A stretch of DNA of 64,000 nt from Sporofaciens sp. SGI.106 (GTDB lineage Bacteria; Bacillota; Clostridia; Lachnospirales; Lachnospiraceae): positions 62,204 to 126,203 of the forward strand of contig NZ_JBNPMZ010000003.1 in the NCBI RefSeq assembly GCF_050314255.1, read 5' to 3'. The notes below the pieces were generated by a model, which was not told the DNA's origin, searched no databases, and worked only from the letters and a program-made list of their open reading frames with translations. Position numbers and translations under genes: made by a program. Below, in pieces: positions 14,055-32,602 of the stretch (its first letter is position 1; each line of letters starts with the position of its first letter).

Positions 14055-14073
14055 ATAGCTTCACTCCTCACTA

Positions 14074-14200
14074 ATGACACCACGCAGATCACACCTGATT
14101 CCAGTATTGCTCAACATATTTCCACGCGTCTTCACTGGATTTGATTGCTTCTATACGCCTCTGCATGTCTTTAATCCGGTTGTTCTTACAATGACTGCTT
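14074..14200 (-). pseudogene. remnant of an Rpn-family recombination-promoting nuclease gene (internally deleted copy of 16657-17556)
   Basis: 14090-14135 matches 16660-16700 (C-terminal codons). 14138-14200 matches 16935-17000. No intact ORF remains. Confidence 0.6.
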
Positions 14201-14207
14201 ACTTCTT

Positions 14208-14420
14208 TCATTATACGAAAAATCGCAACAATTTACAACTTTTCTTATCTGAAATGTAAAAAATTGGATACACATGAGAGATACTCTCGATACTCTGACC
14301 GACTACACAGTCGATTAGAAAATAAGATATCTGAGTATTATTAACCTGAATGGTCTTATCAAATTCTCAAATGAATTGAAACGATTATATCAAAAATTTT
14401 ATTTTATGTCAATTATTATT
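14208..14420. repeat. about 213-bp segment duplicated at 17568-17780 (upstream region of the Rpn gene)
   Basis: Near-identical strings (cattatacgaaaaatcgcaacaatttacaacttttcttatctgaaatgtaaaaaattggataca...) at both places. Confidence 0.75.
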
Positions 14421-14477
14421 CATTCCCCTGCCTCTTCATTTCTGAAGAAGCAGAGGAATCTTAGTCCTTCTTGATAT

Positions 14478-16656: not shown

Positions 16657-17556
16657 TTACTTCCAGTATTGCTTAACATATTTCCACGCATCTTCACTGG
16701 ATATCTGACATTTATTTATCACCTTTGTTACTGTATCCTCTTTAGACATCCCAAATTCTCTATAAGTTTCTACCAGAGTCATGATTGTACCCTCAACTCT
16801 ACCCTGCTCTATTCCTTCTGTTCTGCCCTGCTCTATTCCTTCTGTTCTGCCCTGCTCTATTCCTTCTTCCCTTGCTTTCCGCTGAACCAATATCTTTTCT
16901 TCCCACGCCTGCATATATCTTACACCTACCTCTTCACTGGATTTGATTGCTTCTATTCGCCTCTGCATGTCCTTAATCCGGTTACTCTGACAACGATTGC
17001 TTACTTCTTCCGAGGTATGTTCTATGTAATGCAGCAATTCAACAAGTTCCTCACTGACTTCTCCAGCATTCGTACCGCGTGTATTTAAGAAAATCCTTGT
17101 CGCATCGTCTTCCAGTGATATTTCCGGTCTTTCTTTACATTTCATCTCAAAAGTATACTTATAAAGTCCTTTGCCGAATAAATCAAACGGCGTAATCATA
17201 ATAACAAAGACTTTATTCAACCTGTTGAAATCAATCTCACCTGGTTCCAGCAGCTTAACATCGATCATCGCCTGATACAGACGGCTTCTCTTCGGAAGGT
17301 TCTTCGTATCCTCTTTTTGAACCTCAGTATCATACACGACGTCGTCTGTATCCCATGCCCACACATCCAGTTTTACAAATCGTTTGAGTGGTGACGTGCG
17401 TTGCTCCTTCTCCGTATGCGGAAGATACTTTAATGCAATTTCTTTCCCCAAAACAATTTCAAGCACAGATTTTACAATTACCGGATCTTCCATAGCCTCA
17501 GCAAAAAGAAATCTGTCCAGAAGATTCAAATCCCTTAAATTTTTTCTTTTTTCCAT
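16657..17556 (-). CDS. Rpn family recombination-promoting nuclease / putative transposase (PD-(D/E)xK)
   Basis: LLDRFLFAEAMEDP... N-terminus and C-terminal EEGIEQGRTEGIEQGR repeats typical of the Rpn/YhgA family. Confidence 0.75.
   Translation of the reverse strand: MEKRKNLRDLNLLDRFLFAEAMEDPVIVKSVLEIVLGKEIALKYLPHTEKEQRTSPLKRFVKLDVWAWDTDDVVYDTEVQKEDTKNLPKRSRLYQAMIDVKLLEPGEIDFNRLNKVFVIMITPFDLFGKGLYKYTFEMKCKERPEISLEDDATRIFLNTRGTNAGEVSEELVELLHYIEHTSEEVSNRCQSNRIKDMQRRIEAIKSSEEVGVRYMQAWEEKILVQRKAREEGIEQGRTEGIEQGRTEGIEQGRVEGTIMTLVETYREFGMSKEDTVTKVINKCQISSEDAWKYVKQYWK
16800..16872. repeat. 24-bp tandem repeats x3 encoding EGIEQGRT repeats inside the Rpn gene
   Basis: ctgccctgctctattccttctgtt repeated three times. 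Confidence 0.75.
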
Positions 17557-17918: not shown

Positions 17919-18881
17919 TTAATTATTTACTTCATTTCTATAATCCATGAACGCGTCATAGGTGTCTTCTTCCAGCTCCAGAGATTCCATGACCTGTTTT
18001 GCAATATCACTGTCTATCGCGATACAGAACATGGTAATAGACAGATAGTGATCTCCACCGTCCACATCCATAAGGAACTGAGCGCTTGGCAGATCAGACC
18101 AGGTGAATGTCAAAGCTCTCCAGGTATAATCTCCATAGGTCACTTCTCCCACATCTTCATACCCTGTATCTCTTCCTAATTGAGATTCCACCGCTTCGTC
18201 CACCGTTCCTTTTTTCATATAGAAACCGATTCGCTGATCATCAGAGCCATCAAAGTTTTCCTGAAATTTTTCATCCTGCAGTGTAAATCCATCCGGCACA
18301 TCAAAGGAATAATATCCGTCATAGAGTTTTCCCTTTTCCTCTGCTTCTTTCTCTTCAACCTCTTCTTCCTCAGTCTCTTCTTCCTCCGTGTACTCGCCAA
18401 ACACGATGCTTTCCATCATGGTTGTCACATCCTCCGAATCAATATCCAGCACATCTCCGCCGACCACACAAACCACATGAGGAATACCATTTACAAGGGT
18501 AATATAGTGATAGGAAGCTTCTGCGTTAGTTGTAACATCCATACGCATATAATCATAGGACCCCACTGTCACTTCTGTCGGATTGGAAAATACATTCGGA
18601 CGTTCTTCGATATCTGTATTAATATCCTCTTTCAAAGCATCCATCGTATATTCTTCTCCCGATACATAGCCAAAGGTTTCAGCAAAGATATTTCCAACAT
18701 CGTTAGGACCGGCAATCTCTATATAATCACTGTTCGTGCTCTTGCTGCCTTCCGGTGCGATGGTAAGTACCTCCTGACTTTCAGATACCGTTACTGTATA
18801 CCCTTCTAACGGAGTCACCTCAATCACCCCGTGAGCGGATTTTACAGAAACAGGAGCCTTTGCTTCCTCATTTTCAAGCAT
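17919..18881 (-). CDS. hypothetical protein with poly-acidic stretch (TEEEETEEEEVEEKEAEEK)
   Basis: ORF with a 26-nt gap to the upstream lipoprotein gene. No signal peptide. Confidence 0.45.
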   Translation of the reverse strand: MLENEEAKAPVSVKSAHGVIEVTPLEGYTVTVSESQEVLTIAPEGSKSTNSDYIEIAGPNDVGNIFAETFGYVSGEEYTMDALKEDINTDIEERPNVFSNPTEVTVGSYDYMRMDVTTNAEASYHYITLVNGIPHVVCVVGGDVLDIDSEDVTTMMESIVFGEYTEEEETEEEEVEEKEAEEKGKLYDGYYSFDVPDGFTLQDEKFQENFDGSDDQRIGFYMKKGTVDEAVESQLGRDTGYEDVGEVTYGDYTWRALTFTWSDLPSAQFLMDVDGGDHYLSITMFCIAIDSDIAKQVMESLELEEDTYDAFMDYRNEVNN

Positions 18882-18907: not shown

Positions 18908-20356
18908 TTATTCATCCAACCAGAGCTGTGCGCTATAGCCACCGAAATTCTCACCCGGTGAGAACCAGCACTCGAAGGATGTGTTATAGAACCGGTAATT
19001 TCCGTCGGAATAATAATACCTGTATTCACAGCTGTTAAGATCCTTATCCAGATTCTGGTTCCACTCATCCAGCGTATAATAAGTTGACTCCATGAAAAGG
19101 TAATCCCCATCAATAAATTTTGCTCCATTATTGACATATTCAGACATCTCTGTCTCCCATGTGCGAAGATTCACTCTGCCCAAATGATACTGTTCAAAAT
19201 CCTCTGTTGTATCAAAATACAGATATTCTCCGCAGATCACAGGATTATAAGAACGTACCTCTGTGATCTTCTTCTCGATCTTCTCTCCCACATGGTAAAC
19301 GTGAAGCGTCTCTCCATCCGCATCATCCTGAAATACGATCCATCCGTCTCCCACCTGATACGGGTAGTACACTTCCCTGTCATCAATGATCGGTGTGATA
19401 TTCTTACCATCCAGATCCATAGAACAGTAATGATGGTTTTCATCCGTAAAATATAGTTTCCCGTCGTAGACCTGCTGATACTCTACAGCCTTATCATACA
19501 GAAACTCCGTCTTGTTGTTCTTTACATTAATTTTGACAATACCCAGATTTTTCTCTCCGTTTACCGTAGCATATACATATCCTTCCTCATACTGGAAGTT
19601 AGCCGGATTACAAATCTCGCCGTCAAGAAGAGCCTGCACATCATCCAGGACTACATCTGAACCGTCTTTGCTGATCTTGGCACAGGCAAGCTTTCCATGG
19701 GCTTCATAGCCATATGCCATGTCATCTGCAACAATGGCGTAGCCGCCACTGGAAAAGGCACTCATTTTTCTCACATCTTCCTCGGTAAATTCCGGAGCAA
19801 AGTTGTAAATGCTGACCTTGGGCTCACCCGCATACTCAAACTGGTACGCCTCGTCACCCTCTCCTGCTGCTGATTTTAGAGTCAGGATGAGGATCTCGCC
19901 GTCAAAGGCTGCCGCCGCGCCGCTGTAGGATTCTGTCACCTCCGGATTCTCAAGGGTAAGCGTATAGCTGTCATTCTCTTCTGTCCACAACATCGCCAGT
20001 TCCGCTGTTCTTTCTTCCCCTTCTTCGTCCTCCTCTATCACAGAAAAAGCACAGTTCCCTGTCTCCCATCCTGTGAAAGAGATCGTAGCAAGCATGTCGT
20101 ATCCCAGCAGTTCCTTACAGTCCTCACTGGTCAGCGTTCCCAGATCATCCGTTGTCATAGACGTACACTTCCACTGACCTACGATGTCGCCCGCCTCATG
20201 TGCCGGTTTCTCCGGCTCAGCCTCCTCTTCTGATTCCTTTTCTTCCTTTGCCGTATCTTCCTTCGGTGCTTCTTTCTTGTCAGAACCGCAGGCACACAGG
20301 CCAAGCACCATCGACAATACCAATAATACTGTCAACAGTTTTCTTTTCATAAACAA
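18908..20356 (-). CDS. lipoprotein, hypothetical (possibly beta-propeller-like)
   Basis: Signal peptide plus lipobox LGLCACGS. Acidic linker. Repeated aromatic-rich segments. Confidence 0.55.
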   Translation of the reverse strand: MFMKRKLLTVLLVLSMVLGLCACGSDKKEAPKEDTAKEEKESEEEAEPEKPAHEAGDIVGQWKCTSMTTDDLGTLTSEDCKELLGYDMLATISFTGWETGNCAFSVIEEDEEGEERTAELAMLWTEENDSYTLTLENPEVTESYSGAAAAFDGEILILTLKSAAGEGDEAYQFEYAGEPKVSIYNFAPEFTEEDVRKMSAFSSGGYAIVADDMAYGYEAHGKLACAKISKDGSDVVLDDVQALLDGEICNPANFQYEEGYVYATVNGEKNLGIVKINVKNNKTEFLYDKAVEYQQVYDGKLYFTDENHHYCSMDLDGKNITPIIDDREVYYPYQVGDGWIVFQDDADGETLHVYHVGEKIEKKITEVRSYNPVICGEYLYFDTTEDFEQYHLGRVNLRTWETEMSEYVNNGAKFIDGDYLFMESTYYTLDEWNQNLDKDLNSCEYRYYYSDGNYRFYNTSFECWFSPGENFGGYSAQLWLDE

Positions 20357-20370: not shown

Positions 20371-21636
20371 TCAGAATTTTCCTCCACTTCCTCCATGCGT
20401 CGTTCCGGAAGAGCTGGTATGAGTACTGCTTCCTCCGCTGTCCTCTTTTACAATTTTTCTTTGTGTCACGGTCTTATTCACCAAGCGATCCCAGTTAGCA
20501 GTCAAGATCATGCTTCCCGGCACAGCATAATCACGCGCATTCGTCTTTCTTACGACTGATTTCAGGCTTGCCTTCTTCTTCGTGCCGAGAATAAATGCAA
20601 TCACAATTCCGATCAGCACAGAGATGGGAATCATAACCGGAGAAATGGTACCTTTGGGGAGATTTCCCTTATCATAAGGTTCTCCGGACTTTGCCTGTGT
20701 AATAAATTCATCACAGAGCGTAGCATATTTTGTAAATGCCTCGCTGTAAAACCCGTCACTGAGCAACGGGGTAAATTTGTCAGCCATGTAGTCCATGCCT
20801 GCATCGGTGAATGCGGTAATTCCATAGCCACAGGTACTCATATGCCAGTCACGTTCCTCCATGCTGATAAGCAACAGGATACCGTCCCTGTTTTCTCCGA
20901 ATCCATAACCGTTATAATCATAGAAATCATCGGCGTATTCCATGGCTGTTCTGCCTTGTAAACTGTCCGTCGTCACCACCACGACATCACACTGCTGCCG
21001 CTCACTGATCTCGTCAAGCATTGCCAGAAGCTCTTCTTCTTCGGAATCGGTCAGAAGGTCTCCGTTATCCACCAGACGCGACTGAAGTCGTTCAGTAGGA
21101 ATGCCGCCTGCCTCCGGCTCTTCAGCCTCTGCCTGAGCCTCAGCCTGAGCAGCCTCCAATGCAGCTTTATCCATGACGATTCCTGTTTTTACTTCCAGTA
21201 TCTCCTGTGCCTTATCCAGATAAGCGTCTACAGCCTCATCATAATATCCGTAATAATCATATTCCGCCCACAGTGCGTCCTCATCTTCAACCGTAATAAG
21301 ATCTACCGCACTTCCGGACTTATACAAGTACCACTCCTGATCCTCCGTACTCTCGATCAGCATGATTCCGTCCGCTTCTCCGAAGCATCCCTGATAGATC
21401 TGCTCAGAATAAGCCACTGTTCCCTGTCCTCCGGTTGACTCTGTCAGCAGGATGCTCACAGTGAACCCATAAGTATCTGAAATCACAGATGCCTTCGCAT
21501 TCAATTCCGGTATAAAACCGGTCACACATCCCCGCTGATCGATTATATAGAGCATACTGTCAACGGCTGATACCGGAAGCACCATAAGGAGCGCCAGGAG
21601 AACTGTTAAAAATATTGATACGATCCGTTTCTTCAT
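20371..21636 (-). CDS. TPM-domain protein (YgcG/UPF0603-like), signal peptide, C-terminal TM and Gly-rich tail (cassette A)
   Basis: Signal peptide. Two TPM-like units (GxxLxLxxxxxxDxxxx pattern, DDFYDYNGYGFGE..GILLLISMEERDW). TM helix. GGSSTHTSSSGTTHGGSGGKF tail. Paralog at 29481-30299. Confidence 0.75.
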   Translation of the reverse strand: MKKRIVSIFLTVLLALLMVLPVSAVDSMLYIIDQRGCVTGFIPELNAKASVISDTYGFTVSILLTESTGGQGTVAYSEQIYQGCFGEADGIMLIESTEDQEWYLYKSGSAVDLITVEDEDALWAEYDYYGYYDEAVDAYLDKAQEILEVKTGIVMDKAALEAAQAEAQAEAEEPEAGGIPTERLQSRLVDNGDLLTDSEEEELLAMLDEISERQQCDVVVVTTDSLQGRTAMEYADDFYDYNGYGFGENRDGILLLISMEERDWHMSTCGYGITAFTDAGMDYMADKFTPLLSDGFYSEAFTKYATLCDEFITQAKSGEPYDKGNLPKGTISPVMIPISVLIGIVIAFILGTKKKASLKSVVRKTNARDYAVPGSMILTANWDRLVNKTVTQRKIVKEDSGGSSTHTSSSGTTHGGSGGKF

Positions 21637-21649
21637 CTATATGTCCCTC

Positions 21650-22762
21650 CTAAAACAGCAGCAGCCTTATCCACAGCAGAGCATAGATAAGTGCTCCGAT
21701 GATTACGCCTCTTGCCGTAACATATTTCCAGAATGCTCCGTTATCCGCCGGAAGGTCTCCTACCATCTTACCGGTCTGTCCATTCATGGCAAAGATATAT
21801 TTCTCACCCTTCCATGTAGTATTCAGGATCCATACCGGATACAGCGCATACAGGTACCGCGCATTGTAGATGTTCACATTACTCTCTACCGGTGTCACAG
21901 AATGATATCCCGTCACTGTATCTTCAAATGACTGCTGCGCACTTTTTTTGATCCGCTCCTTTGCCCGCACCAGTCGTTCTTCCATGTCCACATCGTAGCG
22001 GTCAGCCACGTATCCTGCCAGATAGGCTGGCTGGAACGGTACTGCTTCCGAAAAGTCATACGGCTCAATAGATTCCATCAGATCATCATCCATCTTTCTG
22101 GAACCATCTGCGGGGATATGCTCAAAACGGATGCCTCCGGATCTCTTCACCTGATAATGTTCATGCTCCGTGTATTCAATATCTCCGCTTTCCCATACCT
22201 GCACACGCTCCGCACTATATGTAATATCTGCCTTTGTATCTGCATCAAACAACCAGAACGGCACATACACACCCTTGATCTCATCAATATGGTTCTCCTG
22301 CTTAAACACCTTCGGCAGGAACTTCTTTCCATGCAGGTGCTTATGATAAGCCTCCTTTGCAGCCTTCTTATCCAGCTTGAAGGGGATGATATAGTCCGGC
22401 TTCAGATCTCCTGAGAACTGTCCCTTCATAACCACACGGTTCCCGCAGAACGGACAGCTTGTAGCTCCGGTATTCTCATCTGCCACGATCTCGCCGCCAC
22501 AGGATTCGCAGGCATATACCCTCATGCCGTTTGTCTCGCCTTCACTCCACTGTCCATCACTGGCTGCCTGCCAGTTCACATCATCCGAAGCACTTCCGCC
22601 CGGTGCATTTTCTGCACCGTCCTGTTTTCCCTGCTGCGTCTGCTGGAATTCTTCAATGCTCATCTCTGTATCACAGTACGGACATTTCATCTTCTGGCTC
22701 TTACTGTCAAATTCCATGGCACCACCACAGGCCGGACATTTATATTCCATTATGTCAGACAT
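21650..22762 (-). CDS. double zinc-ribbon protein with C-terminal TM anchor (cassette A)
   Basis: CPACGG...CPYCDT and CESCGG...CPFCGN zinc ribbons. C-terminal hydrophobic helix. Paralog at 30321-31385. Confidence 0.7.
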   Translation of the reverse strand: MSDIMEYKCPACGGAMEFDSKSQKMKCPYCDTEMSIEEFQQTQQGKQDGAENAPGGSASDDVNWQAASDGQWSEGETNGMRVYACESCGGEIVADENTGATSCPFCGNRVVMKGQFSGDLKPDYIIPFKLDKKAAKEAYHKHLHGKKFLPKVFKQENHIDEIKGVYVPFWLFDADTKADITYSAERVQVWESGDIEYTEHEHYQVKRSGGIRFEHIPADGSRKMDDDLMESIEPYDFSEAVPFQPAYLAGYVADRYDVDMEERLVRAKERIKKSAQQSFEDTVTGYHSVTPVESNVNIYNARYLYALYPVWILNTTWKGEKYIFAMNGQTGKMVGDLPADNGAFWKYVTARGVIIGALIYALLWIRLLLF

Positions 22763-22783: not shown

Positions 22784-23725
22784 CTAGCAGATATCATTTA
22801 TATCAAAAGGATCTCCGCACTGTGGGCAGAATTTCGGAATATTATTAGGATCTTCCGGAACCCACCCGCACTTGTCACATCGAACCATTCTTCTTTGTTG
22901 CTGCATGCCCTGCTGCATTCCCTGGTTCATCCCATTCATCTGCTGACCGTACATTCCGTTATTCATCATGCCGCCCTGCATTCCCTGATTCATTCCATTC
23001 ATCTGCTGACCGTACATTCCGCCATTCATCATGCCGCCCTGCATTCCCTGATTCATCCCATTCATCTGCTGGCCATACATTCCGTTATTCATCATACTGC
23101 CCTGCATTCCCTGATTCATTCCGCCCATGGGCTGAGCACAGCCGGTAAGAGCTGCCACGATCTGATTTCCTGTATTTTCCATCATCATCATCTTGTTACG
23201 GTCACTATCCTCAATAGAAAATGTATTGAGCTGGAAGTCCATGTCGTCAAACCACGGAGAGTTTACTCCGATCTTGATCCAGTAATCATAGGAATATTTG
23301 TATCTCGGCGGATTGTAGCTTCTCATATTACCGTCATTGTCCTCATACTGCTCTTCATCACAATCCTGCTTAATCTCCAGTCTGCAGCTGGTTATCTGGG
23401 AAAGTGAAACAATATCCGGATTGGTATCAACACTCATTCTGGTAGCAATTGCGAACTGTCCCTTTGTATCGTCAACAAAAACATGATAGCGTTCTCCTGC
23501 CAGATCCCTGGTAATCTGGAAATTTTTTACCTTTGCTTTGTTGGCTTCACGGTAAGCCAACTGCTCTTTAATAGATGCGACGGTGCTGTGGCGGCGCTCT
23601 TCAAACCACGGGGAAAGCTTCTTTGCACATTCTTTACAGAGGTTACCGTCATCCAGCTTCCGGTTACCAAGCATTCCTATCTTTTCTCCACAAATATCAC
23701 AGTATTTCTTATCAAATAATCCCAT
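22784..23725 (-). CDS. DUF4428-like zinc-ribbon protein with M/G/Q/N-rich 21-aa repeats and C-terminal zinc ribbon
   Basis: [15 protein letters not shown]...CKEC N-terminus. Four [21 protein letters not shown] repeats. C-terminal [31 protein letters not shown]. Confidence 0.6.
22894..23135. repeat. 63-bp tandem direct repeats x4 (coding, inside the DUF4428 gene)
   Basis: ctgcattccctgRttcatYccattcatctgctgRccRtacattccg... recurring at 22912, 22975, 23038 and 23101. Confidence 0.8.
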
Positions 23726-23744
23726 ATTCTTTTCCTCCTTTTGC

Positions 23745-25166
23745 TTATACTATGTCGTTCTCATTAAAAGGATCTCCGCACTCCGGACAGAATCTCGGTG
23801 GATTCTTCGGATCTGCAGGCTCCCATCCGCACTTGTCACAGCGGTATAATGGCGCTCCTGCCGGTTTCTTTGCTCCGCATTCCGTGCAGAACTTTCCTTT
23901 ATTGACTGCTCCACAGGAACAGGTCCAGCCTTCCTCAGTCGGTTTCGGAGAACCACACTCCGGACAGAATTTACCGGTAACCGTTGCACCGCAGGAGCAT
24001 TTCCATGCATCTGCCTTCACTGGTTCCGGCTTTTTAGCCCCACACTCCGGACAGAATTTGCCGGTTGCTGTTGCCCCACAGGAACACTTCCACCCTGCCG
24101 GAACCGCTGCTGCAGGTGCAGCCTGTTGCTTCATCTGCTGTGCCTGCTGCATCTGTTGCTGCTGACCCATGGCAAACAGATTCTGTGCATTTATGCCGCC
24201 TGCCTGCTGAGCCATTCCCATTCCCATAAATCCCATCATAGCTCCGTTTGGATTATTTGCCGCTGATTTCATTGCCTCAGACTGTGCTCCAACCAGTGTT
24301 GCTGCTGCCATAGTAGGATCTCGCATGATGGCTGCCCTCTGTGCCTGCTTGATCATCTCTGCATCCTCTTCCGGAAGTGTGATCGGATTCATCGCAATAG
24401 ACACAACAGAAAGTCCTCTAAGTTCTACCCATTTTTTTGTCAGTGCCTCGTTCATTGCCTCTGAAAGCTCTTCCGCATGTCCCGGAAGTGCACTCGGGCG
24501 GATCTGAAGCTCAGAAATTTTTGCAAATGCCGGCTGGAGAGCACTGATAAATTCCGTCTTTAACTGACTCTCAATCTCTTCCCGATTATATTCCTGCTCC
24601 ACATTTCCGCACACGTTCGTATAGAACAGAAGCGGGTTGGTAATTTTGTAGGAATAAACGCCGGAACACCTTACAGATACATCAATATCCAGACCGATAT
24701 TGCGGTCTACTACCCGGAACGGAATCGGATTCGGTGTGCCGAATTTATTATCGATCAGTTCCTTTGTATTAAAGTAATACACCCGCTGATCTTTCCCGGT
24801 ATCTCCTCCATACGTAAAACGCTTACCTATGGTCCTAAAAGTTGCTTTAATACTGTCTCCCAGGTCTCCTGCAAAGATACTTGGTTCTGTAGATGTGTTA
24901 TATGTATATTCACCGGGTTCAGCACACACTTCAACAATCTTTCCCTGTTCTACGATCATCATGCACTGTCCGTCTGCCACAGCAATGCCGGAACCGTTGG
25001 AGATAATATTGTCATTCCCTTTCGTATTGGACGAACGTCCTGTGATCCGTTTCTGCCCTTTTTTCACCATTACATCTTTGTCCAGCGCTTCGCAGTAGAA
25101 AAATTCTTTCCACTGATCTGCCATTGCACCGCCAAATGCTCCCATTCCTGCTTTGATAAGTCCCAT
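23745..25166 (-). CDS. SPFH/band-7 domain protein (COG4260-like) with four C-terminal zinc ribbons (cassette A)
   Basis: [13 protein letters not shown]...ADQWKEFF N-terminus typical of this SPFH family. Three [18 protein letters not shown] repeats plus a terminal [31 protein letters not shown]. Confidence 0.8.
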
Positions 25167-25246: not shown

Positions 25247-25636
25247 TTATAATGAATCCAGCGCCGCCGCAAGATACTCGGCTGTCACAGAAGCATAGAA
25301 AAATGCGTCAATCTTTCCTGCCTGCTTCGCCCGCATTACATCACGTGCCAGCTCCGGATATGCTATCTCATCACAGAGCAGCACCATCTTACACGCAGAC
25401 AGCTCTCTGCGCATTTTATCAATCAATGCTAACCGTCCCTCCAGTCTGGTCTCCAATGACGAGGGTGTCACATCCATTAATAATATGTCTGGTCCGGCAG
25501 CCTGGCATTCAATCAGGATCATCTCCTGCTGCCGTGGCGGAACATATAGCGGATGAAAATCGCCGGTCTGTTTCAGCATCAAATAAACACTTTCCGCAAA
25601 AACACGATTAGAGATACTGATTGCAATTTTCTTCAC
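25247..25636 (-). CDS. degenerate receiver (REC)-like domain protein
   Basis: ILLMDV aspartate context and a K near the C-terminus, but it lacks the N-terminal acidic pair. Stand-alone 129 aa. Confidence 0.35.
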   Translation of the reverse strand: MKKIAISISNRVFAESVYLMLKQTGDFHPLYVPPRQQEMILIECQAAGPDILLMDVTPSSLETRLEGRLALIDKMRRELSACKMVLLCDEIAYPELARDVMRAKQAGKIDAFFYASVTAEYLAAALDSL

Positions 25637-25868: not shown

Positions 25869-26498
25869 CTAATCAATATTTACTACAATTCCGCTGACCC
25901 TTGCCTCAATAGCAAGTTCCGTCCTGCTTCCACATCCGGTTTTTTCCATCATATGACGAATGTGATTCTTCACAGTATTTTCTGTGATTCCAAGCTTCTG
26001 TGCAATGATGGCATTGGACACCCCTGTCGTCATTACACGAAGCACTTCCAGCTCCCGCTCGGTAAACTCCCCGCTGTTGCTAAGACCTAATTTTACCATT
26101 GGCACATGATCCGGATAAACCGATTCTCCAGCCATTGTCCGGTCCATCACTTCGAGAATGGTCTCACTGGATGCCTCCTTAAACCAGAAGCTTTCGATGC
26201 CTATTTTCCGCGCCCTGTTAAGCCAGGATGCTTCCGGCATAGACGTAACAGCAATGATTTTTATATTCGGACGGTTCTTCTTGATTCTTGCAGCAGCTTC
26301 CAATCCATTGGATCCATCATTCATTAAAATATCCATAAGCACAAGGTCAATCGAGTTCTTCAGTACAAAGGTATCAGCAAAGGCCGCCGATTCTATTGCA
26401 TATACCAACTCATAGTTTTCTGATGACTTTACATACATCTCAAAAAGCTGTCGTGAGATATATTGATCATCTACAATCATTACTCTTGTTCTGCCCAT
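25869..26498 (-). CDS. response regulator, NarL/LuxR family (LiaR-like)
   Basis: REC domain (VMIVDDQ...LVLMDILM) plus LuxR HTH (LTERELEVLRVMTTGVSNAIIAQKLGITENTVKNHIRHMMEKTG). Confidence 0.85.
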   Translation of the reverse strand: MGRTRVMIVDDQYISRQLFEMYVKSSENYELVYAIESAAFADTFVLKNSIDLVLMDILMNDGSNGLEAAARIKKNRPNIKIIAVTSMPEASWLNRARKIGIESFWFKEASSETILEVMDRTMAGESVYPDHVPMVKLGLSNSGEFTERELEVLRVMTTGVSNAIIAQKLGITENTVKNHIRHMMEKTGCGSRTELAIEARVSGIVVNID

Positions 26499-27802
26499 TC
26501 CTCTTCATCCCCTTTCGGAAGTAACACCCGCAGTACAAAACGGGGCATACTCTCTATCTTCATGTCTCCACCTGCCGATTCTACCATATGACGAAGATTT
26601 TTTAAACCTCCGGTCTCTCTGATCTCGCCAGCCGGAGAGTGCCCGTTGTTGGAAAGCTCTGCCATAATATTCCTGTCACTTTGTCTGACTGCAATAATCA
26701 ATCGGTTACCGTCTGCATGCTTAACTGTATTTGTCAGGCATTCATGGATTGCAGCCATCAGAACGGCTCTGTTCTTCTTATCTTCCGGAAATTCCCCGTC
26801 TCGAACAAGAGCCACATCCACAGATTCTGCCGCCTCCAAAAGCATCTCCCAGTCATTATTCTGCGCTGGCAGCGCAGCCTCATTCTTCATCACAGAAATA
26901 GTATGTCTCCATAAAATCAGCAGTTTATCGCGGTCCCTCATCTTTCCTGACTGAGCAAGGTAAGAACGAAATGCAAGCAATGACCGCCCCACATCGTCAT
27001 GCACCCGCATCTTTGCAGCCAAAATCTCCTTCTCTCTTGTGATATGTTCTACCTCCCGGCTGTACCTGCGCAGTCTCTCATTTACGCAACTAAGCGCCTC
27101 ATTTCGTTCCTCCAGCTCTCTCCTAAGCCCATACTGCTTTGTCACATCGTAAGCCACCAGCTCCTGTAATCTCTGATGTCCTACCTTCAGTATGTTCCTG
27201 TGAAAATCCCAGACCTTTTCGTCTCCGGTCCGGGCAATTACAGTTGGCTCTGTACGAATGATCTCACTGTCTTCTCCGACTGTTTTTCTTTTCAGTCTGT
27301 CAAAAAACAACTCACCATTCAAAATCTCCGTGTCAACCAATTCTCCACTAAGTTTTTGCATCTGTTCATTAACCAGAAGTGGCTGTCCATCTTCAGCAAA
27401 AAAACAGATTCCGTCCGGCAGTGCATCAAGACTCTCTTTAATAGCATCAGGTGTCAGCATATTTTTACGTTTCTGCTTAATCTGGATAATAAATTTCACT
27501 TCAGCAATACTTATCACCGTCATAAGGAAGACAATCCCTAACCACGGGAGATTTCCCACCACAATAGCAAAAAATGAAAACGAAAACCCACATTCCAAAC
27601 TTATGCCTGTATCCGCAAGTCCCTGCAATAAAAACAAGGCTGACAGCGCCAACATACCGGAAATCCCCCGGTATTTCCATTGAAGCTGCATTACATAGGA
27701 ATTTACAAAAATCAGCAAAGCCGCTGTTAAAACCAGCACCCCACATATTCCAAGCGGCAATATCTGCATACTGGAAAGCTCACGGCATATCGTCATAACC
27801 AT
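26480..27802 (-). CDS. sensor histidine kinase, HisKA_3 (NarX/LiaS/DesK) type
   Basis: Multi-TM N-terminus. H-box RVHDDVGRSL. HATPase_c C-terminus (ECLTNTVKHADGN...GGLKNL). Overlaps the RR gene by 19 nt. Confidence 0.85.
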   Translation of the reverse strand: MVMTICRELSSMQILPLGICGVLVLTAALLIFVNSYVMQLQWKYRGISGMLALSALFLLQGLADTGISLECGFSFSFFAIVVGNLPWLGIVFLMTVISIAEVKFIIQIKQKRKNMLTPDAIKESLDALPDGICFFAEDGQPLLVNEQMQKLSGELVDTEILNGELFFDRLKRKTVGEDSEIIRTEPTVIARTGDEKVWDFHRNILKVGHQRLQELVAYDVTKQYGLRRELEERNEALSCVNERLRRYSREVEHITREKEILAAKMRVHDDVGRSLLAFRSYLAQSGKMRDRDKLLILWRHTISVMKNEAALPAQNNDWEMLLEAAESVDVALVRDGEFPEDKKNRAVLMAAIHECLTNTVKHADGNRLIIAVRQSDRNIMAELSNNGHSPAGEIRETGGLKNLRHMVESAGGDMKIESMPRFVLRVLLPKGDEEEWAEQE

Positions 27803-29472
27803 TCACCTCCCAATGGCAAAGCAAGAGAAATATACTCTGTCTGCTGATCCTTTTCTATCTCCAGCGTTCCATGTAATTTTTCAATCTTATCCTGAATACT
27901 GCGATTTGACAGCACCTTCCTCGGATTGTTCAGTTCCATTCTTAAAGCAAGTACGTCTTCCGATATATTCAGATTAACAAGTACCGCATCTGTACCGGGA
28001 ATCCCCGCTTCCAGTACCGCCTCAACCAGTTCATATGCTGTCAGGATACTCTCTCCCGGAAGGGTTCCTTTCACACGATAGGACCCATAAGTCTTAATTC
28101 CGTACAGTCGCACATATTCCAGTGATTCTGCAATCGCCAGATGAAGCTCTTCGCCATGAATCTCCCGCCCCTGATGACAAAGAAGCAAAAGATTCGAATG
28201 GCGTTTAATGTATGCATTCAGAATACAGGCAAATTTCATTGTCTGCTCAAACTGCTCTTCTTCAGACGAAAGACCATCCAGCAAACTGCTCAGTCTGTCA
28301 ATCTGAAGACGGACACTCTCTGTAATACTGTCATATAATTTGTTCTGCTGCTCAATACGAAACCGGCTCTCCGCCAGTTTATTTTCCGCATCCAGCATAG
28401 CATTTTCTTCAGCCAGTACATCTCCCAGTTCTTCAAGCTCCCGATTCAGATGATTAATCTCTGAAATATCTCTGGTCCAGTACCCATAACCTCCCTGTAC
28501 TGCATGGCTTCTCAGACTGACATTGCCATCCTTAAGCAATACTTCATGTTCCTGCGCTTCCAGGATCTGTTCCGGGGATGGTGACACATTCTGTTCCGAG
28601 CGATAGCGGATCACTCCATCTTTATCCATAATCCCTGCACCTATTGACGACGCATTCCAGAAGTCACCGTATCCGTCATTCGAAGGAAGAAGATGTGTCG
28701 CGATAAGTCCCTCCATAAATGCGGCAAATATCACGCAGACCATTTCCGGTACCCTGAACATAAATTGCAGAATATTATCCGGATCAACAAAAAACATCAC
28801 AAGATAACAGATTCCAACACCTAACGGCACCAGTGATATCCAGACCTTTCTGCGCCTTCCCGGTACGGCACACCGAATCAGTACAATCGCCAATATGGCA
28901 GTGAAAAGCACAAAAATCCACAGCAGAGCTGCAAAATAAAATGGACCATGTATATATGGTGTATCACTCGAGTTTATCATACCCTCCGGGAACCGAAATG
29001 CCAGCTGGTGCATATCGTTGGTCAGAATTCCGGCTGTAATAATAATCGCAGGTATGTAAAGCAGTTTCCACAACCGACTGATGGGACGGTCATACGGACG
29101 CCCAATATAAAGTACTGAAAAAAACATCAGAAGCACACAAAATGTCTGAGGAATGTAGTACAGATACCAGGCATATCGCTCTGTAAAATGTCCCCTCAAA
29201 AGGAACATATACTTTACAGTCCGAAGCCCCATCCAAAAAACCATCAGATATGCAGCCGCAATTAGATTCCTTCGCACTTCCGGCTGAAGAACACGCCTTC
29301 TGATCTGCGAGATCCAGATAAACGCTGCTGTCGAATAAAATGCATAAATAATAATATTATGAGTAATCTCTGTTCCGTACAGCAAAAGACGTGCCACGCC
29401 GGAAAACAACACCAGCATAATACAGACTGTATTCAGAATTTTCGTTTCTTTACTTCCAGCATAATTTAACAT
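27793..29472 (-). CDS. multi-pass membrane sensor protein with coiled-coil and degenerate histidine-kinase-like C-terminal domain
   Basis: About 8 predicted TM helices, then a coiled-coil (LNRELEELGDVLAEENAMLDAENKLAES). A C-terminal ATPase-like region with no clear H-box. Confidence 0.4.
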   Translation of the reverse strand: MLNYAGSKETKILNTVCIMLVLFSGVARLLLYGTEITHNIIIYAFYSTAAFIWISQIRRRVLQPEVRRNLIAAAYLMVFWMGLRTVKYMFLLRGHFTERYAWYLYYIPQTFCVLLMFFSVLYIGRPYDRPISRLWKLLYIPAIIITAGILTNDMHQLAFRFPEGMINSSDTPYIHGPFYFAALLWIFVLFTAILAIVLIRCAVPGRRRKVWISLVPLGVGICYLVMFFVDPDNILQFMFRVPEMVCVIFAAFMEGLIATHLLPSNDGYGDFWNASSIGAGIMDKDGVIRYRSEQNVSPSPEQILEAQEHEVLLKDGNVSLRSHAVQGGYGYWTRDISEINHLNRELEELGDVLAEENAMLDAENKLAESRFRIEQQNKLYDSITESVRLQIDRLSSLLDGLSSEEEQFEQTMKFACILNAYIKRHSNLLLLCHQGREIHGEELHLAIAESLEYVRLYGIKTYGSYRVKGTLPGESILTAYELVEAVLEAGIPGTDAVLVNLNISEDVLALRMELNNPRKVLSNRSIQDKIEKLHGTLEIEKDQQTEYISLALPLGGEWL

Positions 29473-29480
29473 ATTCCCCG

Positions 29481-30299
29481 TCAGAATTTTCCGCCTCCGC
29501 CTCCGTGTGTTCTTCCTGATGAACTGGTGTGAGTGCTGCTTCCTCCACTGTTTTCATTTCTCTCAATCTTCCTGGTTGTGACGGTCTTATTCACCAGATG
29601 ATCCCAGTTTTTTGTAAGAACCATACTTCCCGAAACCATATAGTCCTGCGCCTGTGTATTTTTAACCACTGATTTCAAAGCTGATTTTTTTATCATACCA
29701 ATAATAAGCGCAATCACAAATCCAATCAACAGATCCACGAATATCCAGAAAGCCGGAACCGTTCCTTTGGGAAGATTTCCCACATCATATGGCTCCCCGG
29801 TCCTTGCCTGTGTAATAAAATTGTCGCAAAGCTCTGCATATTTTTCAAATGCGTCACTGTAATCTCCGTCACTGAGCATTGGTAAGAATTCATCTGCCAC
29901 ATACTCTATACCTGCATCAGTCAGTGCTGTAATTCCGAAACCACAGGTAGAAATATACCAATCTCTTTCCTCCATACTGACCAGAAGCAGGATACCGTCT
30001 TTTTCCTCGCCGAACCCATAACCATTATAATCATAGAAATCATCGGCATATTCCATGGCACTCTTACCATCCAACCCGTCGACCGTCACTACTGCAACAT
30101 CACATTCCTGCCGTTCACTGATCTCATCGAGCTGCTCCAAAATATCTGCCTCTTCCTCATCTGTCAGGAGATCCGCTTCATCTACAAGACGCGGCAAAAG
30201 CCGCTCGGGTGGCATTTCTTCCACTGCTGCTGATACCGGAAGTACTGTGGAGAAAATCAAAATAACTGTAAATAATATCGTAAATAACCGTTTCTTCAT
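29481..30299 (-). CDS. TPM-domain protein (YgcG-like), signal peptide, TM and Gly-rich tail (cassette B)
   Basis: C-terminal two-thirds near-identical to 20371-21636 (DDFYDYNGYGFGEEKDGILLLVSMEERDW...GGSSTHTSSSGRTHGGGGGKF). Confidence 0.8.
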   Translation of the reverse strand: MKKRLFTILFTVILIFSTVLPVSAAVEEMPPERLLPRLVDEADLLTDEEEADILEQLDEISERQECDVAVVTVDGLDGKSAMEYADDFYDYNGYGFGEEKDGILLLVSMEERDWYISTCGFGITALTDAGIEYVADEFLPMLSDGDYSDAFEKYAELCDNFITQARTGEPYDVGNLPKGTVPAFWIFVDLLIGFVIALIIGMIKKSALKSVVKNTQAQDYMVSGSMVLTKNWDHLVNKTVTTRKIERNENSGGSSTHTSSSGRTHGGGGGKF

Positions 30300-30320
30300 T
30301 TTCCTGTCCGCCCTTCCATT

Positions 30321-31385
30321 CTATATCAGCATGATTACCCACGTGAGAGCATACAGGATTGCCCCTGTAATTACTCCCCATGTTGCAACAAATCGCCAGA
30401 AAGCTCCTTTGTCTGCAGGAAGATCACCTACCATCTTTCCGGTCTGTCCATTCATGGCAAAAGTATATTTTTCACCATTCCATGTAGTATTCAGAATCCA
30501 TACAGGATATAGCGCATAACTATATTTTGCATTACAGATATTTACATGACTCTGTGCCGTCATCACGGAATGATATCCTGTTACTGTATTTGCAAATGAA
30601 TCCTCTGCACTGCGTTTCATTCTTTCTTCGGCACGCTTCATCCGTTCATCTTTATCCACATCATAGCGGTCGGCCACATATCCGGCCAGATATGCCGTCT
30701 GAAACGGAACAGCCTCCGAGAAATCATAAGGCTCTATGGATTCCATCAGCGTATCGTCCATTTTTACTGACCCATCCGCCGGAATGTGCTGAAAGCTGAT
30801 TCCACCGGCTCTTTGTGCCTGATAAAAGGAATGTTCCGTATATTCCACATCACCGGTTCTCCATACCCGCGTCTTCTGGGCATTATATGTAATATCTGCT
30901 TCCACATCCGCGTCAAACAGCCAGAACGGAACATAGACTCCTTTGATTTCATCAATATGGTTTTCCTCTTTGAAAATAGCAGGCAGAAACTTCTTTCCAG
31001 ATAAATGCCTGTGATAGGCTTCTTTCGCATCCTTCTTATCCAGTTTAAATGGAATAATATAGTCTGGCTTTAAGTCTCCGGCAAACTGACCTTTCATTAC
31101 TACACGGTTACCACAGAAAGGACAGGTAGTTGCACCGGTACTGTCATCTGCAATAATTTCCCCACCGCAGGATTCGCAGACATAGATGTGCATTCCATCC
31201 GTCTCACCCTCCTGCCAGTTTCCGTCACCTTTTGCCTGCCAGTCTGCCTGCTGTTGCTGCATCTGCTGATACTCTTCAATACTCATCTGTGTATCACAAT
31301 ACGGGCATTTCATCTGCTGGCTCTTACTGTCAAATTCCATGGCTCCGCCACAGGCAGGACATTTATATTCTATTATATCTGACAT
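30321..31385 (-). CDS. double zinc-ribbon protein with C-terminal TM anchor (cassette B)
   Basis: Paralog of 21650-22762 (MSDIIEYKCPACGGAMEFDSKSQQMKCPYCDTQMSIEE...). Confidence 0.7.
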   Translation of the reverse strand: MSDIIEYKCPACGGAMEFDSKSQQMKCPYCDTQMSIEEYQQMQQQQADWQAKGDGNWQEGETDGMHIYVCESCGGEIIADDSTGATTCPFCGNRVVMKGQFAGDLKPDYIIPFKLDKKDAKEAYHRHLSGKKFLPAIFKEENHIDEIKGVYVPFWLFDADVEADITYNAQKTRVWRTGDVEYTEHSFYQAQRAGGISFQHIPADGSVKMDDTLMESIEPYDFSEAVPFQTAYLAGYVADRYDVDKDERMKRAEERMKRSAEDSFANTVTGYHSVMTAQSHVNICNAKYSYALYPVWILNTTWNGEKYTFAMNGQTGKMVGDLPADKGAFWRFVATWGVITGAILYALTWVIMLI

Positions 31386-31399
31386 AGATTTCTCCTCTC

Positions 31400-32602
31400 C
31401 TAACGGATGTCATTTTCATTAAAGGGATCACCACATTCCGGACAGAATTTCGGAGGATTCTTCGGATCTGCAGGCTCCCAGCCACATTTATCACAGCGAT
31501 ATAACGGAGCTGCTGCAGGTTTCTTCGCCCCACACTCTGTACAGAATTTGCCTTTATTTACCGTTCCACATGTACAGGTCCAGCCTCCCTGTTGCTGCTG
31601 TCCCATGGCAAACAAATTCTGTGCATTTATGCCACCTGCCTGCTGAGCCATGCCCATTCCCATGAATCCCATCATGGCACCATTGGGATTATTTGCCGCT
31701 GCTTTCATAGCATCAGCCTGTGCTCCTGTAAGTGTTGCAGCTGCCATAGTAGGATCACGCATGATTGCAGCTTTCTGTGCCTGCTTGATCATCTCAGCAT
31801 CTTCTTCCGGAAGCGAAATGGTATTCATAGCTATGGATATAACAGAAAGCCCGCGAAGCTCTGCCCATTTTTTTGTAAGAGCCTGATTCATTGCCTCTGA
31901 CAGCTCCTCTGCATGACCCGGAAGTGCATTCGGCCGAATCTGCAGTTCGGAAATTTTTGCAAATGCCGGTTGAAGAGCACTGATAAATTCTGTTTTTAAC
32001 TGGCTTTCAATCTCTTCGCGATCATATTCCTGTTCCACATTTCCACACACATTTGTATAAAACAGAAGCGGATTAGTGATTTTATAAGAATAAACACCGG
32101 AACATCTGACAGATACATCAATATCCAATCCAATATTGCGGTCAACCACCCGGAACGGGATCGGATTCGGTGTGCCGAATTTATTATCCATCAATTCTTT
32201 CGTGTTAAAATAATAAACGCGCTGATCTTTTCCCGTATCTCCACCATACGTGAAACGTTTTCCAATGGTCCGGAAGGTTGCTTTAATGCTGTCTCCGAGA
32301 TTTCCCGCAAAAATACTGGGCTCTGTAGATGTATTGTAGGTATATTCTCCCGGTTCTGCACATACCTCTACAATCTTTCCCTGCTCTACAATCATCATAC
32401 ACTGGCCATCTGCCACCGCAATTCCCGATCCGCTGGAAATAATATTGTCATTCCCTTTCGTATTGGAAGAACGACCGGTAATACGCTTTTGTCCCTTTTT
32501 CACCATCACTTCTTTGTCCATTGCCTCGCAGTAGAAAAACTCCTTCCACTGATCTGCCATTGAACCGCCAAGAGCTCCCATTCCTGCTTTAATAAGTCCC
32601 AT
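31400..32602 (-). CDS. SPFH/band-7 domain protein (COG4260-like) with two C-terminal zinc ribbons (cassette B)
   Basis: N-terminus more than 90% identical to 23745-25166. C-terminal [18 protein letters not shown] plus [31 protein letters not shown]. Confidence 0.8.
   Translation of the reverse strand: MGLIKAGMGALGGSMADQWKEFFYCEAMDKEVMVKKGQKRITGRSSNTKGNDNIISSGSGIAVADGQCMMIVEQGKIVEVCAEPGEYTYNTSTEPSIFAGNLGDSIKATFRTIGKRFTYGGDTGKDQRVYYFNTKELMDNKFGTPNPIPFRVVDRNIGLDIDVSVRCSGVYSYKITNPLLFYTNVCGNVEQEYDREEIESQLKTEFISALQPAFAKISELQIRPNALPGHAEELSEAMNQALTKKWAELRGLSVISIAMNTISLPEEDAEMIKQAQKAAIMRDPTMAAATLTGAQADAMKAAANNPNGAMMGFMGMGMAQQAGGINAQNLFAMGQQQQGGWTCTCGTVNKGKFCTECGAKKPAAAPLYRCDKCGWEPADPKNPPKFCPECGDPFNENDIR

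Follow-up and report, generated by a model that had tools for sequence, protein, structure and literature searches.

A Portable C-Terminal Zinc-Ribbon Tail on Clostridial SPFH and DUF4428 Proteins, Probably a Docking Tag

A Shared Terminal Module and Its Upstream Ribbons

Three minus-strand genes of the window, by which we mean the whole stretch of 64,000 nucleotides analyzed here, encode two SPFH proteins (SPFH-A and SPFH-B) and a DUF4428 protein that all end with the same 32-residue Cys4 module, and the tail to which this module belongs is probably a docking tag, not a part specific to this locus. On the minus strand, the module occupies positions 23748..23843 in SPFH-A (residues 442–473, net charge –3), 22787..22882 in the DUF4428 protein (residues 282–313, modeled with a pLDDT of 88–91), and 31403..31498 in SPFH-B (residues 369–400, located by translation and by a back-translated pattern). 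The two SPFH copies agree at 30 of 32 residues and 80 of 96 nucleotides; the DUF4428 copy shares 23 of 32 residues and 71 of 96 nucleotides with that of SPFH-A, and 24 of 32 residues with that of SPFH-B. A 75-nucleotide degenerate back-translation of the module has exactly three matches in the window and none in 100 shuffles, and a six-frame scan of the 64 kb gave no further copy of the module. The common C-terminal module that a preliminary description of this DNA had reported for the three proteins is thus real. What is shared exceeds the 30 residues given there: a low-complexity linker rich in Met, Gln, Gly, and Asn precedes the ribbons in both types of protein.

Upstream of the module, SPFH-A carries three ribbons and SPFH-B one, all on the minus strand, visible in the translations, and of the type W-x-C-x-C-G…F-C-x-x-C-G. 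In SPFH-A, the ribbons of 18 residues each (ribbon 1, 24039..24092, residues 359–376; ribbon 2, 23952..24005, residues 388–405; ribbon 3, 23874..23927, residues 414–431) follow a low-complexity Met/Gly/Gln/Ala linker read from the translation (24093..24257, minus strand, residues 304–358), and up to 16 cysteines fall within the last 115 residues of the protein. Ribbons 1 and 2 are near identical (17/18 residues, 45/54 nucleotides), as had been proposed for all three, but ribbon 3 matches them at only 13 of 18 residues; it is the counterpart of the single ribbon of SPFH-B (31529..31582), with which it shares 16 of 18. The layout of SPFH-B, one ribbon plus the module, was borne out as first described.

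With cysteine spacings of C-x2-C-x13-C-x2-C in the module and C-x-C-x9-C-x2-C in the upstream ribbons, both fit the two-knuckle zinc-ribbon pattern, and in the AF2 model of the DUF4428 protein the module has short strands and follows an 80-residue disordered linker. The module consensus is C-D-K-C-G-W-x-P-x-D-P-x-x-x-P-K-F-C-P-x-C-G-D-P; the four cysteines are invariant in 45 sequences, and the residues W, P-x-D-P, P-K-F, and G-D-P are as conserved as the cysteines. This last observation bears on the view that the cysteine clusters are a metal or thiol-redox sensor switching the activity or assembly of a stress system. The abundance of cysteines in SPFH-A, the sensor kinase system adjoining the locus, and the acceptance of iron as well as zinc in vivo by SecA-like metal-binding domains (10.1101/613315) would all suit such a sensor, but the conservation outside the cysteines points to a binding surface beyond the metal site, and we regard a sensor as very improbable. 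A terminator-like hairpin at 22831-22813 sits inside the coding sequence of the module and was disregarded.

Every terminal module has an acidic net charge (–3 to –5), and the upstream ribbons range in charge from 0 to +3. Nucleic-acid binding, raised as an option in the preliminary description and within the general capacity of zinc ribbons (PMC3581485), would give the tail a regulatory function. We consider it extremely unlikely: nothing in the analysis supports it, the module is acidic, the heads and their operon belong to a membrane setting, and the carriers are without a DNA-binding domain.

Distribution and Relatives of the Tail

A profile search with the module at E ≤ 1e-3 across 1.84 billion cluster representatives matched only 661 of them. 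At least 598 module copies were confirmed in species genomes, nearly all of them from Clostridia, and in 79 of the 80 best genome loci the host is an SPFH protein. The module also ends 111 of the 120 closest homologues of the DUF4428 protein, and the same ribbon-plus-module tail is found in 103 of 120 homologues of a third, unrelated head, a large family that is weakly EcsC-like (EcsC PF12787 at 15.5–27.8 bits in three members against a cut-off of 30.4; precomputed match in 2/120; poor AF2 model with a pLDDT of 52.5). A scan of viral sequences returned a single real carrier (L090), again a DUF4428-family protein, the other three matches being unrelated phage proteins with generic ribbons. It should be noted that the best 150 profile matches were left out of these architecture counts, as they are mostly fragments, frameshifted pieces, and probable chimeras (e.g., a GldL N-terminus joined to the tail), and that a query with a 43-residue module sequence returned only short fragments (37–76 residues), which are uninformative on architectures.

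The tail is therefore portable, ending three unrelated heads, and specific, as had been suggested; the module constitutes a narrow family that is neither a generic ribbon nor confined to one locus. Its proposed tie to a single locus was not supported: the EcsC-like carriers lie in unrelated, defence-island-like or ICE-like contexts, 27 of 79 SPFH carriers have no detected SamG/SamH-like neighbor, and some DUF4428 carriers have no adjacent SPFH gene. The preliminary description had itself taken occurrence on unrelated proteins without locus association as speaking against a system-specific module; with carriers outside this type of locus, the module is not system-specific in that sense, nor is it a generic ribbon.

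One likeness is to generic bacterial zinc ribbons. Two Cys knuckles are shared with DZR (PF12773), Zn_Ribbon_1 (PF13240), and Zn_ribbon_3 (PF13248). The upstream W-x-C-x-C ribbons look like members of these families, to which precomputed matches exist in homologue fragments. In contrast to them, the module stays below the curated cut-offs (for DZR, 21.4 bits in SPFH-A and 19.6 in the DUF4428 protein against 27.3), has its own invariant signature outside the cysteines, and is narrowly distributed. A second likeness is to the C-terminal tail of SecA, in which a flexible linker likewise leads to a very small, Cys-based metal-binding domain that closes the protein, with the motif C-x-C-x-S-G-x8-C-H/C. 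The SecA domain docks to SecB and to the ribosome and is also present on the otherwise unrelated YecA and YchJ (PMC6620043; 10.1101/613315). SecA-like domains differ from the tail described here in motif, hosts, and partners, and SEC-C gave no match at E ≤ 0.01.

The third likeness is to SHOCT (PF09851), which is also short, portable, and mostly C-terminal, has Band_7_1 as its commonest partner, can likewise accompany bacterial PH domains or double zinc ribbons, and has been proposed to mediate oligomerization (PMC3581485). SHOCT and the tail thus agree in where they sit and in the kinds of head that bear them. SHOCT is helical and lacks conserved cysteines and histidines, whereas the tail is Cys-based, and no SHOCT match was found in these proteins at E ≤ 0.01; the resemblance is one of analogy, not of homology. 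By this analogy, the tail could be an oligomerization or cross-linking element, its ribbons binding like ribbons or the SPFH assembly so that tail-bearing proteins join the SPFH oligomer. Such a role would explain the carriers without SamG or SamH neighbors, it fits the presence of multiple ribbons in one chain, and the B. subtilis SPFH protein YdjI does self-interact (PMC8581546). The uniformly acidic terminal modules disfavor simple self-association, however, and oligomerization is ascribed to the SPFH domain itself (PMC8581546), so that we give this explanation a low, though not negligible, probability.

The DUF4428 Protein

The DUF4428 gene (22784..23725, minus strand, 313 residues) lies between SPFH-A and G_A, the gene of a membrane-anchored double-ribbon protein. 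Its product starts with a Cys4 ribbon (23561..23701, minus strand, residues 9–55; PF14471 at 64.7 bits, cut-off 27.8), followed by a tentative PH-like beta-sandwich with a C-terminal helix (23141..23518, minus strand, residues ~70–195), a disordered Met/Asn/Gln/Gly linker (22895..23131, minus strand, residues 199–277, pLDDT <50), and the terminal module. A Foldseek search of the model against the PDB, in which a seven-stranded beta-sandwich with a C-terminal helix cap (PH, PTB, or FERM-F3) was to count as PH-like, gave no significant match. The gene is located between an SPFH gene and a G gene in five of eight contexts, this window included. Many DUF4428 homologues carry the W-x-C-x-C ribbon as well, and at three loci (L014, L069, and L079) the DUF4428 neighbor of the SPFH gene has this ribbon only; the terminal module is therefore dispensable for the DUF4428 protein.

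Age of the Modules and Ribbons

The modules of the old paralogues SPFH-A and SPFH-B differ at 16 of 96 nucleotides with only two amino acid changes, a pattern which indicates that the module evolves under purifying selection. Host-specific signatures classify 113 of 114 modules correctly into SPFH and DUF4428 types, and the SPFH-borne and the DUF4428-borne modules are old, separate lineages, both under purifying selection. Recent gene conversion between the copies was considered and rejected: where residues agree, the share of codons that also agree is similar in the SPFH, G, and H pairs (0.61, 0.57, and 0.55), and the two types of module have fixed diagnostic residues.

The copy number of the upstream ribbons does vary between species, with one, two, or three ribbons in 12, 55, and 8 hosts, respectively; the active expansion that had been read from this variation was not supported. 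Ribbons 1 and 2 of SPFH-A agree at no more than 45 of 54 nucleotides, and SPFH-A has its three-ribbon layout in common with orthologues from loci of Faecalicatena, Blautia, and Oliverpabstia, which marks the duplication as old. Recent gain and loss of repeats is instead found in the DUF4428 linker, where a 63-nucleotide unit is repeated 3.3 times in tandem (22913-23119, TRF, 92% matches).

Kinship with the SamGHI System of Bacillus subtilis

The locus holds the clostridial counterpart, lacking PspA, of the YdjGHI/SamGHI system of B. subtilis (for domain descriptions, see 10.1101/2020.09.24.301986). It comprises two paralogous minus-strand clusters (SPFH-A/G_A/H_A and SPFH-B/G_B/H_B), one on each side of a HisKA_7TM two-component system, and a profile scan places genes for Band_7_1, TPM, and double-ribbon proteins next to each other. 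SPFH-A (23745..25166, minus strand, 473 residues) is a soluble SPFH protein of the SamI/YdjI type (Band_7_1 PF13421, E = 6.5e-23, 81.9 bits), and its paralogue SPFH-B (31400..32602, minus strand, 400 residues, 83.3 bits against the same cut-off of 24) is 94% identical to it over 400 aligned residues. G_A (21650..22762, minus strand) is YdjG/SamG-like, with two N-terminal zinc ribbons (sub-threshold matches at residues 5–33 and 83–110) and a C-terminal membrane anchor (residues 347–365); G_B (30321..31385, minus strand) has the same two ribbons and transmembrane segment and is 77% identical. It is the G proteins, and not the tail, that match RpoP and TFIIB-type ribbon models. H_A (20371..21636, minus strand) is a YdjH/SamH-like TPM-domain membrane protein (PF04536, E = 1.6e-38) with a signal peptide, a transmembrane segment, and a basic cytoplasmic tail of charge +8, and H_B (29481..30299, minus strand; PF04536 match and transmembrane segment) is 69% identical to it. 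The cytoplasmic tails of the H proteins have charges of +6 to +8 and carry a conserved C-terminal motif, GGS.TH.SSSG..HGG..G.F. The SPFH and DUF4428 proteins have no hydrophobic segment, G is tail-anchored, and H has a signal peptide and one transmembrane segment.

The regulatory genes between the clusters (25869..29472, minus strand) encode the HisKA_7TM protein, a second kinase-like protein, and a LuxR/GerE response regulator, a gene set that recurs upstream of DUF4428 genes elsewhere. A 129-residue ORF (25247..25636, minus strand) matches no family; at other loci, too, it is conserved between the regulator and the SPFH/DUF4428 genes. The SPFH, DUF4428, and H_A proteins belong to no NCBIfam family, PADLOC gave no relevant match for SPFH-A, the DUF4428 protein, G_A, H_A, a DUF5050 protein, or the 129-residue ORF, and no PDB relative of SPFH-A was found by sequence.

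The parallel with B. subtilis is close in several respects. YdjI is also an SPFH protein without a membrane anchor, in which a low-complexity region is followed by a C-terminal zinc finger (PMC8581546), so that, going by the published description of this finger, both have a soluble Band_7_1 protein with a Cys-rich ribbon at its end; in both, the genes that accompany the SPFH gene encode one membrane protein with a double ribbon (YdjG/SamG) and another with a TPM domain (YdjH/SamH). The two differ in gene order, which is SPFH-G-H here and G-H-SPFH in B. subtilis, and in their regulation, with a HisKA_7TM two-component system adjoining here and sigma-W control in B. subtilis. Whereas the B. subtilis operon starts with pspA, no pspA adjoins either cluster: a profile scan of the genes between 17919 and 34896 gave no match to a PspA family. 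A simple listing of ORFs upstream of G-H-SPFH loci, aimed at pspA, showed these to differ between loci. The clostridial locus additionally holds the DUF4428 gene, a proposed client, and its tail is elaborated into one to three ribbons and a distinctive acidic terminal module.

A Putative Docking Tether

Our best reading, which we hold with about even confidence, is that the tail is a portable C-terminal tether, composed of linker and zinc ribbons, by which soluble heads dock at a platform beneath the membrane. In order, the parts of this conserved tail are a disordered linker rich in Met, Gln, Gly, and Asn, zero to three slightly basic ribbons, and one acidic Cys4 ribbon last. Stabilized by zinc, the tail would hold otherwise soluble heads at a platform on the cytoplasmic side of the membrane, its long linker providing reach and the repeated ribbons on an oligomeric SPFH assembly providing avidity. 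The most likely receptor in this locus, at a guess, would be the SamG/SamH-like pair; SamG and SamH are both required for the anchor-less SamI of B. subtilis to reach the membrane (PMC8581546). YdjH and YdjI interact in two-hybrid assays (PMC8581546; 10.64898/2026.02.06.704340). The cytoplasmic tail of the TPM protein, which is basic and rich in His and Gly, could be the partner with which the acidic terminal ribbon pairs, although such a fit of charges is weak evidence. On this reading, the DUF4428 protein would be another client of that platform, expressed together with it from a single operon, and the adjacent HisKA_7TM two-component system probably controls this operon of the 129-residue ORF, SPFH-A, DUF4428, G, and H.

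The dependence of SamI on SamG and SamH also bears on whether the ribbons bind membrane lipids directly, the tail being a peripheral membrane anchor. The three heads are all soluble proteins for which a membrane location is expected, the upstream ribbons carry a mildly basic charge, and in some homologues of the SNIPE nuclease the transmembrane segment is replaced by DUF4428 or PH domains (10.1101/2025.11.03.685801). The behavior of SamI, however, argues against autonomous lipid binding, as does the acidity of the conserved terminal module, and we think a direct lipid anchor decidedly unlikely.

A G-like neighbor is present at 50 of 79 SPFH loci, and at other SPFH loci Tim44-like (NTF2 fold) plus ribbon membrane proteins take the place of G. 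The EcsC-like carriers and 27 of the 79 SPFH carriers have no SamG/SamH-like gene close by, and the receptor may therefore be more general or encoded elsewhere. A common docking partner, as raised in the preliminary description, is plausible for the tail carriers. A bolder and rather unlikely version would make the tail a dedicated address label for a single conserved receptor on the cytoplasmic side of the clostridial membrane, so that chromosomal stress proteins (the SPFH scaffold and the PH-like DUF4428 adaptor) and the EcsC-like proteins of mobile elements and defence islands would share one SPFH platform; candidate receptors would be the His/Gly-rich C-terminal motif of the TPM protein and the ribbons or NTF2-like domain of SamG or of the Tim44-like partners.

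The published work on B. subtilis SamGHI names the C-terminal zinc finger of SamI, and we found no test of the finger's role there. The tail offers a concrete candidate determinant for the membrane recruitment of anchor-less SPFH scaffolds such as SamI/YdjI: the C-terminal finger of these SPFH proteins is strongly constrained and forms part of a portable tail, which recurs in no fewer than two further protein families. The locus also provides a first functional context for a DUF4428 subfamily that is abundant in gut Clostridia, downstream of a HisKA_7TM two-component system and often within a SamGHI-like operon. Should the EcsC-like proteins borne on mobile elements prove to rely on this label as well, scaffolds of the membrane stress response would be tied to the biology of mobile elements or of defence.

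The C-terminal zinc-ribbon tail

The two SPFH (Band_7_1) scaffold proteins and the DUF4428 protein encoded in the window end in the same module (32 aa), which confirms the sharing noted in the preliminary description. SPFH-A (23745-25166, minus strand; 473 aa, Band_7_1 match) carries three ribbons (W-x-C-x-C-G-x7-F-C-x-x-C-G; aa 359, 388, and 414) followed by the module, SPFH-B (31400-32602, minus strand) carries one ribbon and the module, and in the DUF4428 protein (22784-23725, minus strand; 313 aa, DUF4428 match at the N-terminus) the module likewise forms the C-terminal end. The SPFH-A and SPFH-B modules share 30/32 residues, and the SPFH and DUF4428 copies 23-24/32. A degenerate 75-nt back-translation of the module gave exactly three matches in the window (0 in 100 shuffles), and no fourth copy was found across it. 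The likeness between SPFH and DUF4428 proteins is more extensive than first described, as it includes the Met/Gln/Gly/Asn-rich linker before the ribbons. Ribbons 1 and 2 of SPFH-A are indeed near-identical (17/18 aa), whereas ribbon 3, which had been grouped with them, is the counterpart of the single SPFH-B ribbon. The proposed active expansion of the ribbons was not supported: ribbons 1 and 2 are identical at only 45/54 nt, and the three-ribbon arrangement also occurs in orthologues adjoining DUF4428 genes (Faecalicatena, Blautia, and Oliverpabstia loci). The recently changing part is instead a 63-nt tandem repeat in the DUF4428 linker (22913-23119; 3.3 copies, 92% matches), which codes for 21-aa Met/Asn/Gln/Gly units, since homologues at least 90% identical (283-313 aa) have linkers of different length.

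More than 6,200 homologues of the DUF4428 protein were found (E ≤ 1e-3). Their first ~195 residues show high conservation and precede a hypervariable MYGQQ-type linker. The module forms the C-terminal end of 111 of the 120 closest, and most others end in a W-x-C-x-C ribbon. AF2 (46 sequences) predicted the head (aa 1-198) and the module (pLDDT 88-91) with confidence, and disorder in the linker between them (199-277; pLDDT <50).

SPFH-borne and DUF4428-borne modules show fixed differences at column 8 (Glu vs. Val/Met/Thr), 15 (Pro vs. Ile/Val), and 26 (Phe vs. Ile), and a nearest-neighbour test returned the right host for 113 of 114 distinct modules. The window modules conform to this rule; as they keep their host-type signatures, recent exchange within this genome was rejected, and the column patterns indicate that the sharing is ancient and maintained.

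Specificity and distribution of the module

A search for the motif across genomes, already suggested in the preliminary description, revealed a narrow distribution. The profile (32 positions, from 45 modules), scored against 1.84 billion representative proteins, matched only 661 clusters at E ≤ 1e-3, of which 226 reached E ≤ 1e-10. With a single genome scanned for each species, at least 598 copies were confirmed (598 of the 600 stretches listed). Among the matches listed, nearly all copies are from Clostridia (Lachnospiraceae, Oscillospiraceae, Ruminococcus, and relatives), with a few in Peptoniphilus, Synergistales, Succiniclasticum, and Erysipelotrichales.

The host is an SPFH protein in 79 of the best 80 loci, with one (12), two (55), or three (8) ribbons upstream of the module in the full-length hosts. 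The SPFH-module loci of this set include 50 with a neighbour resembling the double-ribbon protein YdjG, 31 with a detected TPM neighbour (an underestimate at the phmmer threshold applied), five with a DUF4428 neighbour, and 27 in which neither a YdjG-like nor a TPM neighbour was detected. In some loci, the place of the YdjG-like protein as SPFH partner is taken by a membrane protein that has both a Tim44-like (NTF2-fold) domain and a C-terminal zinc ribbon of its own (L017, 7105-7866; L018, 3360-5095; L100, 3999-4985; L-numbers denote loci from other genomes). Monoglobus is a further case, in which RefSeq annotates the pair as "TIM44-like domain-containing protein" and "SPFH domain-containing protein". 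Such a partner corresponds, in permuted order, to the one with ribbon, NTF2-like domain, and TM. Several Lachnospiraceae have a "solo" SPFH-module gene (L006, L007, and L021; about 2500-7100) with a large helicase-like gene just downstream and, by eye, a sigma factor-like gene and several small membrane-protein genes upstream.

The remaining locus of the 80, L071 (gene 6092-7126), has a different host, a 344-aa protein with a ribbon, the module, and a helical head with sub-threshold similarity to EcsC. This EcsC-like family comprises about 4,800 homologues (E ≤ 1e-3) of ~338 aa, and the module, with the SPFH-type signature, ends 103 of the best 120. Besides a +16 amphipathic stretch, the head includes marginally hydrophobic segments; the AF2 model is poor. 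No SPFH, YdjG-like, or TPM genes were found near the EcsC-like genes of L071 and L094-L098 (8001-9017 or 7001-8017 in L094, L095, L096, and L098). Their neighbours are housekeeping genes (L071), AAA_15, DUF4435, and helicase genes (L094), HEPN and TIR genes (L095), or ParA/ParB and Tad-like secretion genes (L096-L098); the last are typical of integrative elements, and AAA_15 with DUF4435, HEPN, and TIR are defence genes.

Operon structure and comparison with samGHI

Clusters A and B, the neighbourhoods of the two SPFH genes, lie on either side of genes for a HisKA_7TM protein, a second kinase-like protein, and a LuxR/GerE response regulator (25869-32602, minus strand, for these genes and cluster B together). 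Both SPFH genes are followed by two membrane-protein genes, encoding a YdjG-like protein (G_A, G_B; two N-terminal zinc ribbons and one C-terminal hydrophobic segment) and a YdjH-like TPM protein (H_A, H_B; signal peptide, a single transmembrane segment, and a cytoplasmic tail that is basic). No hydrophobic segment was found in the SPFH and DUF4428 proteins. Cluster A is set off from the regulator gene by a strong terminator-like hairpin (25854-25830) on the 3' side of the latter; the SPFH-A, DUF4428, G_A, H_A, and DUF5050 lipoprotein genes then follow one another with gaps of 13-21 nt, which suggests a single operon. Only 8 nt separate cluster B from the 7TM gene downstream of it, and its cotranscription with the sensor genes is possible. 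Clusters A and B are paralogues that separated long ago: where residues are identical, the codons are identical too in a fraction of 0.61 (SPFH), 0.57 (G), and 0.55 (H), so that the 94% identity of SPFH-A and SPFH-B reflects constraint, and recent conversion was rejected.

The same domain set is known from the Bacillus subtilis pspA-ydjGHI (samGHI) operon, where YdjG combines two zinc ribbons with an NTF2-like domain and a TM, and YdjH is a TPM protein (10.1101/2020.09.24.301986; PMC8581546; 10.64898/2026.02.06.704340). Both systems combine an SPFH protein with a double-ribbon and a TPM membrane protein. The window locus differs in its SPFH-G-H order, its two paralogous clusters around the sensor genes, the DUF4428 gene between SPFH-A and G_A, and the lack of an adjoining pspA (no PspA gene was found between 17.9 and 34.9 kb); pspA linkage is the missing one of five testable SamI-family features, the other four being present in the window SPFH proteins.

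In eight distinct DUF4428 contexts (the window and retrieved loci), SPFH and G flank the gene in five, and it has no SPFH, G, or TPM neighbours in three; HisKA_7TM or GerE-type regulatory genes are upstream in all eight. A conserved 127-129-aa ORF occurs together with it in six. This ORF (25247-25636, minus strand; also L003, L005, L086, L088, and L089), between the GerE-type regulator and the SPFH/DUF4428 genes, had no match in Pfam or PADLOC and by eye resembles a degenerate receiver domain.

Short gaps separate H_A from the DUF5050 beta-propeller lipoprotein (18908-20356) and an acidic 320-aa protein (17919-18881; both minus strand); beta-propeller or large LRR_5 proteins follow H in L001, L003, L087, and L088. 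A perfect sigma-70 consensus (17774-17746, minus strand; TTGACA, 17 nt, TATAAT, upstream TG) precedes a PD-(D/E)XK transposase-like gene (16657-17556). Further downstream (13278-15983, minus strand), the genes for an HTH-containing Uma2-family nuclease (13278-14054) and an anti-sigma-like protein of the zf-HC2 type (14478-15440), and after them a 180-aa ORF, are unconnected with the tail.

Possible role of the tail

The C-terminal zinc ribbon of the SamI-type family is already known. Full-text searches found no description of the distinctive terminal module, of the module within the whole tail on DUF4428/PH-like or EcsC-like proteins, or of the tight link of this DUF4428 subfamily to the HisKA_7TM system.

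The module is a conserved Cys4 unit with a confidently predicted fold, which follows a long linker predicted to be disordered and is always at the extreme C-terminus; the tail is under purifying selection and is carried by three unrelated soluble heads. As less likely alternatives, such ribbons could serve redox or metal sensing, or bind nucleic acid. They could also bind lipid directly. Oligomerization through the ribbons would be analogous to SHOCT (PMC3581485), a domain that, with the SecA C-terminal linker and metal-binding domain (common to YecA and YchJ), offers the closest functional analogies to the tail. We favor a tether, by which the tail would attach soluble heads to a platform beneath the membrane; reach would come from the linker, and avidity from multiple ribbons on an oligomeric scaffold. 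SamI-type proteins depend on SamG and SamH for membrane arrival: in B. subtilis, YdjI and YdjH interact, and deletion of ydjG or ydjH abolishes its membrane foci (PMC8581546). In some SNIPE nuclease homologues, DUF4428 or PH domains replace an N-terminal transmembrane segment (preprint, 10.1101/2025.11.03.685801), which fits a membrane role for DUF4428.

A candidate receptor is the TPM cytoplasmic tail, since it is basic (net charge +6 to +8) against the acidic module (-3 to -5) and ends in a conserved motif. This motif (GGS.TH.SSSG..HGG..G.F), at the C-termini of H_A (20371-20440) and H_B (29481-29550), is common to the TPM proteins of 30 loci, and much of the TPM domain is less conserved. 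The EcsC-like carriers and solo SPFH genes indicate that a receptor gene in the neighbourhood is not required, and the receptor may be a more general one.
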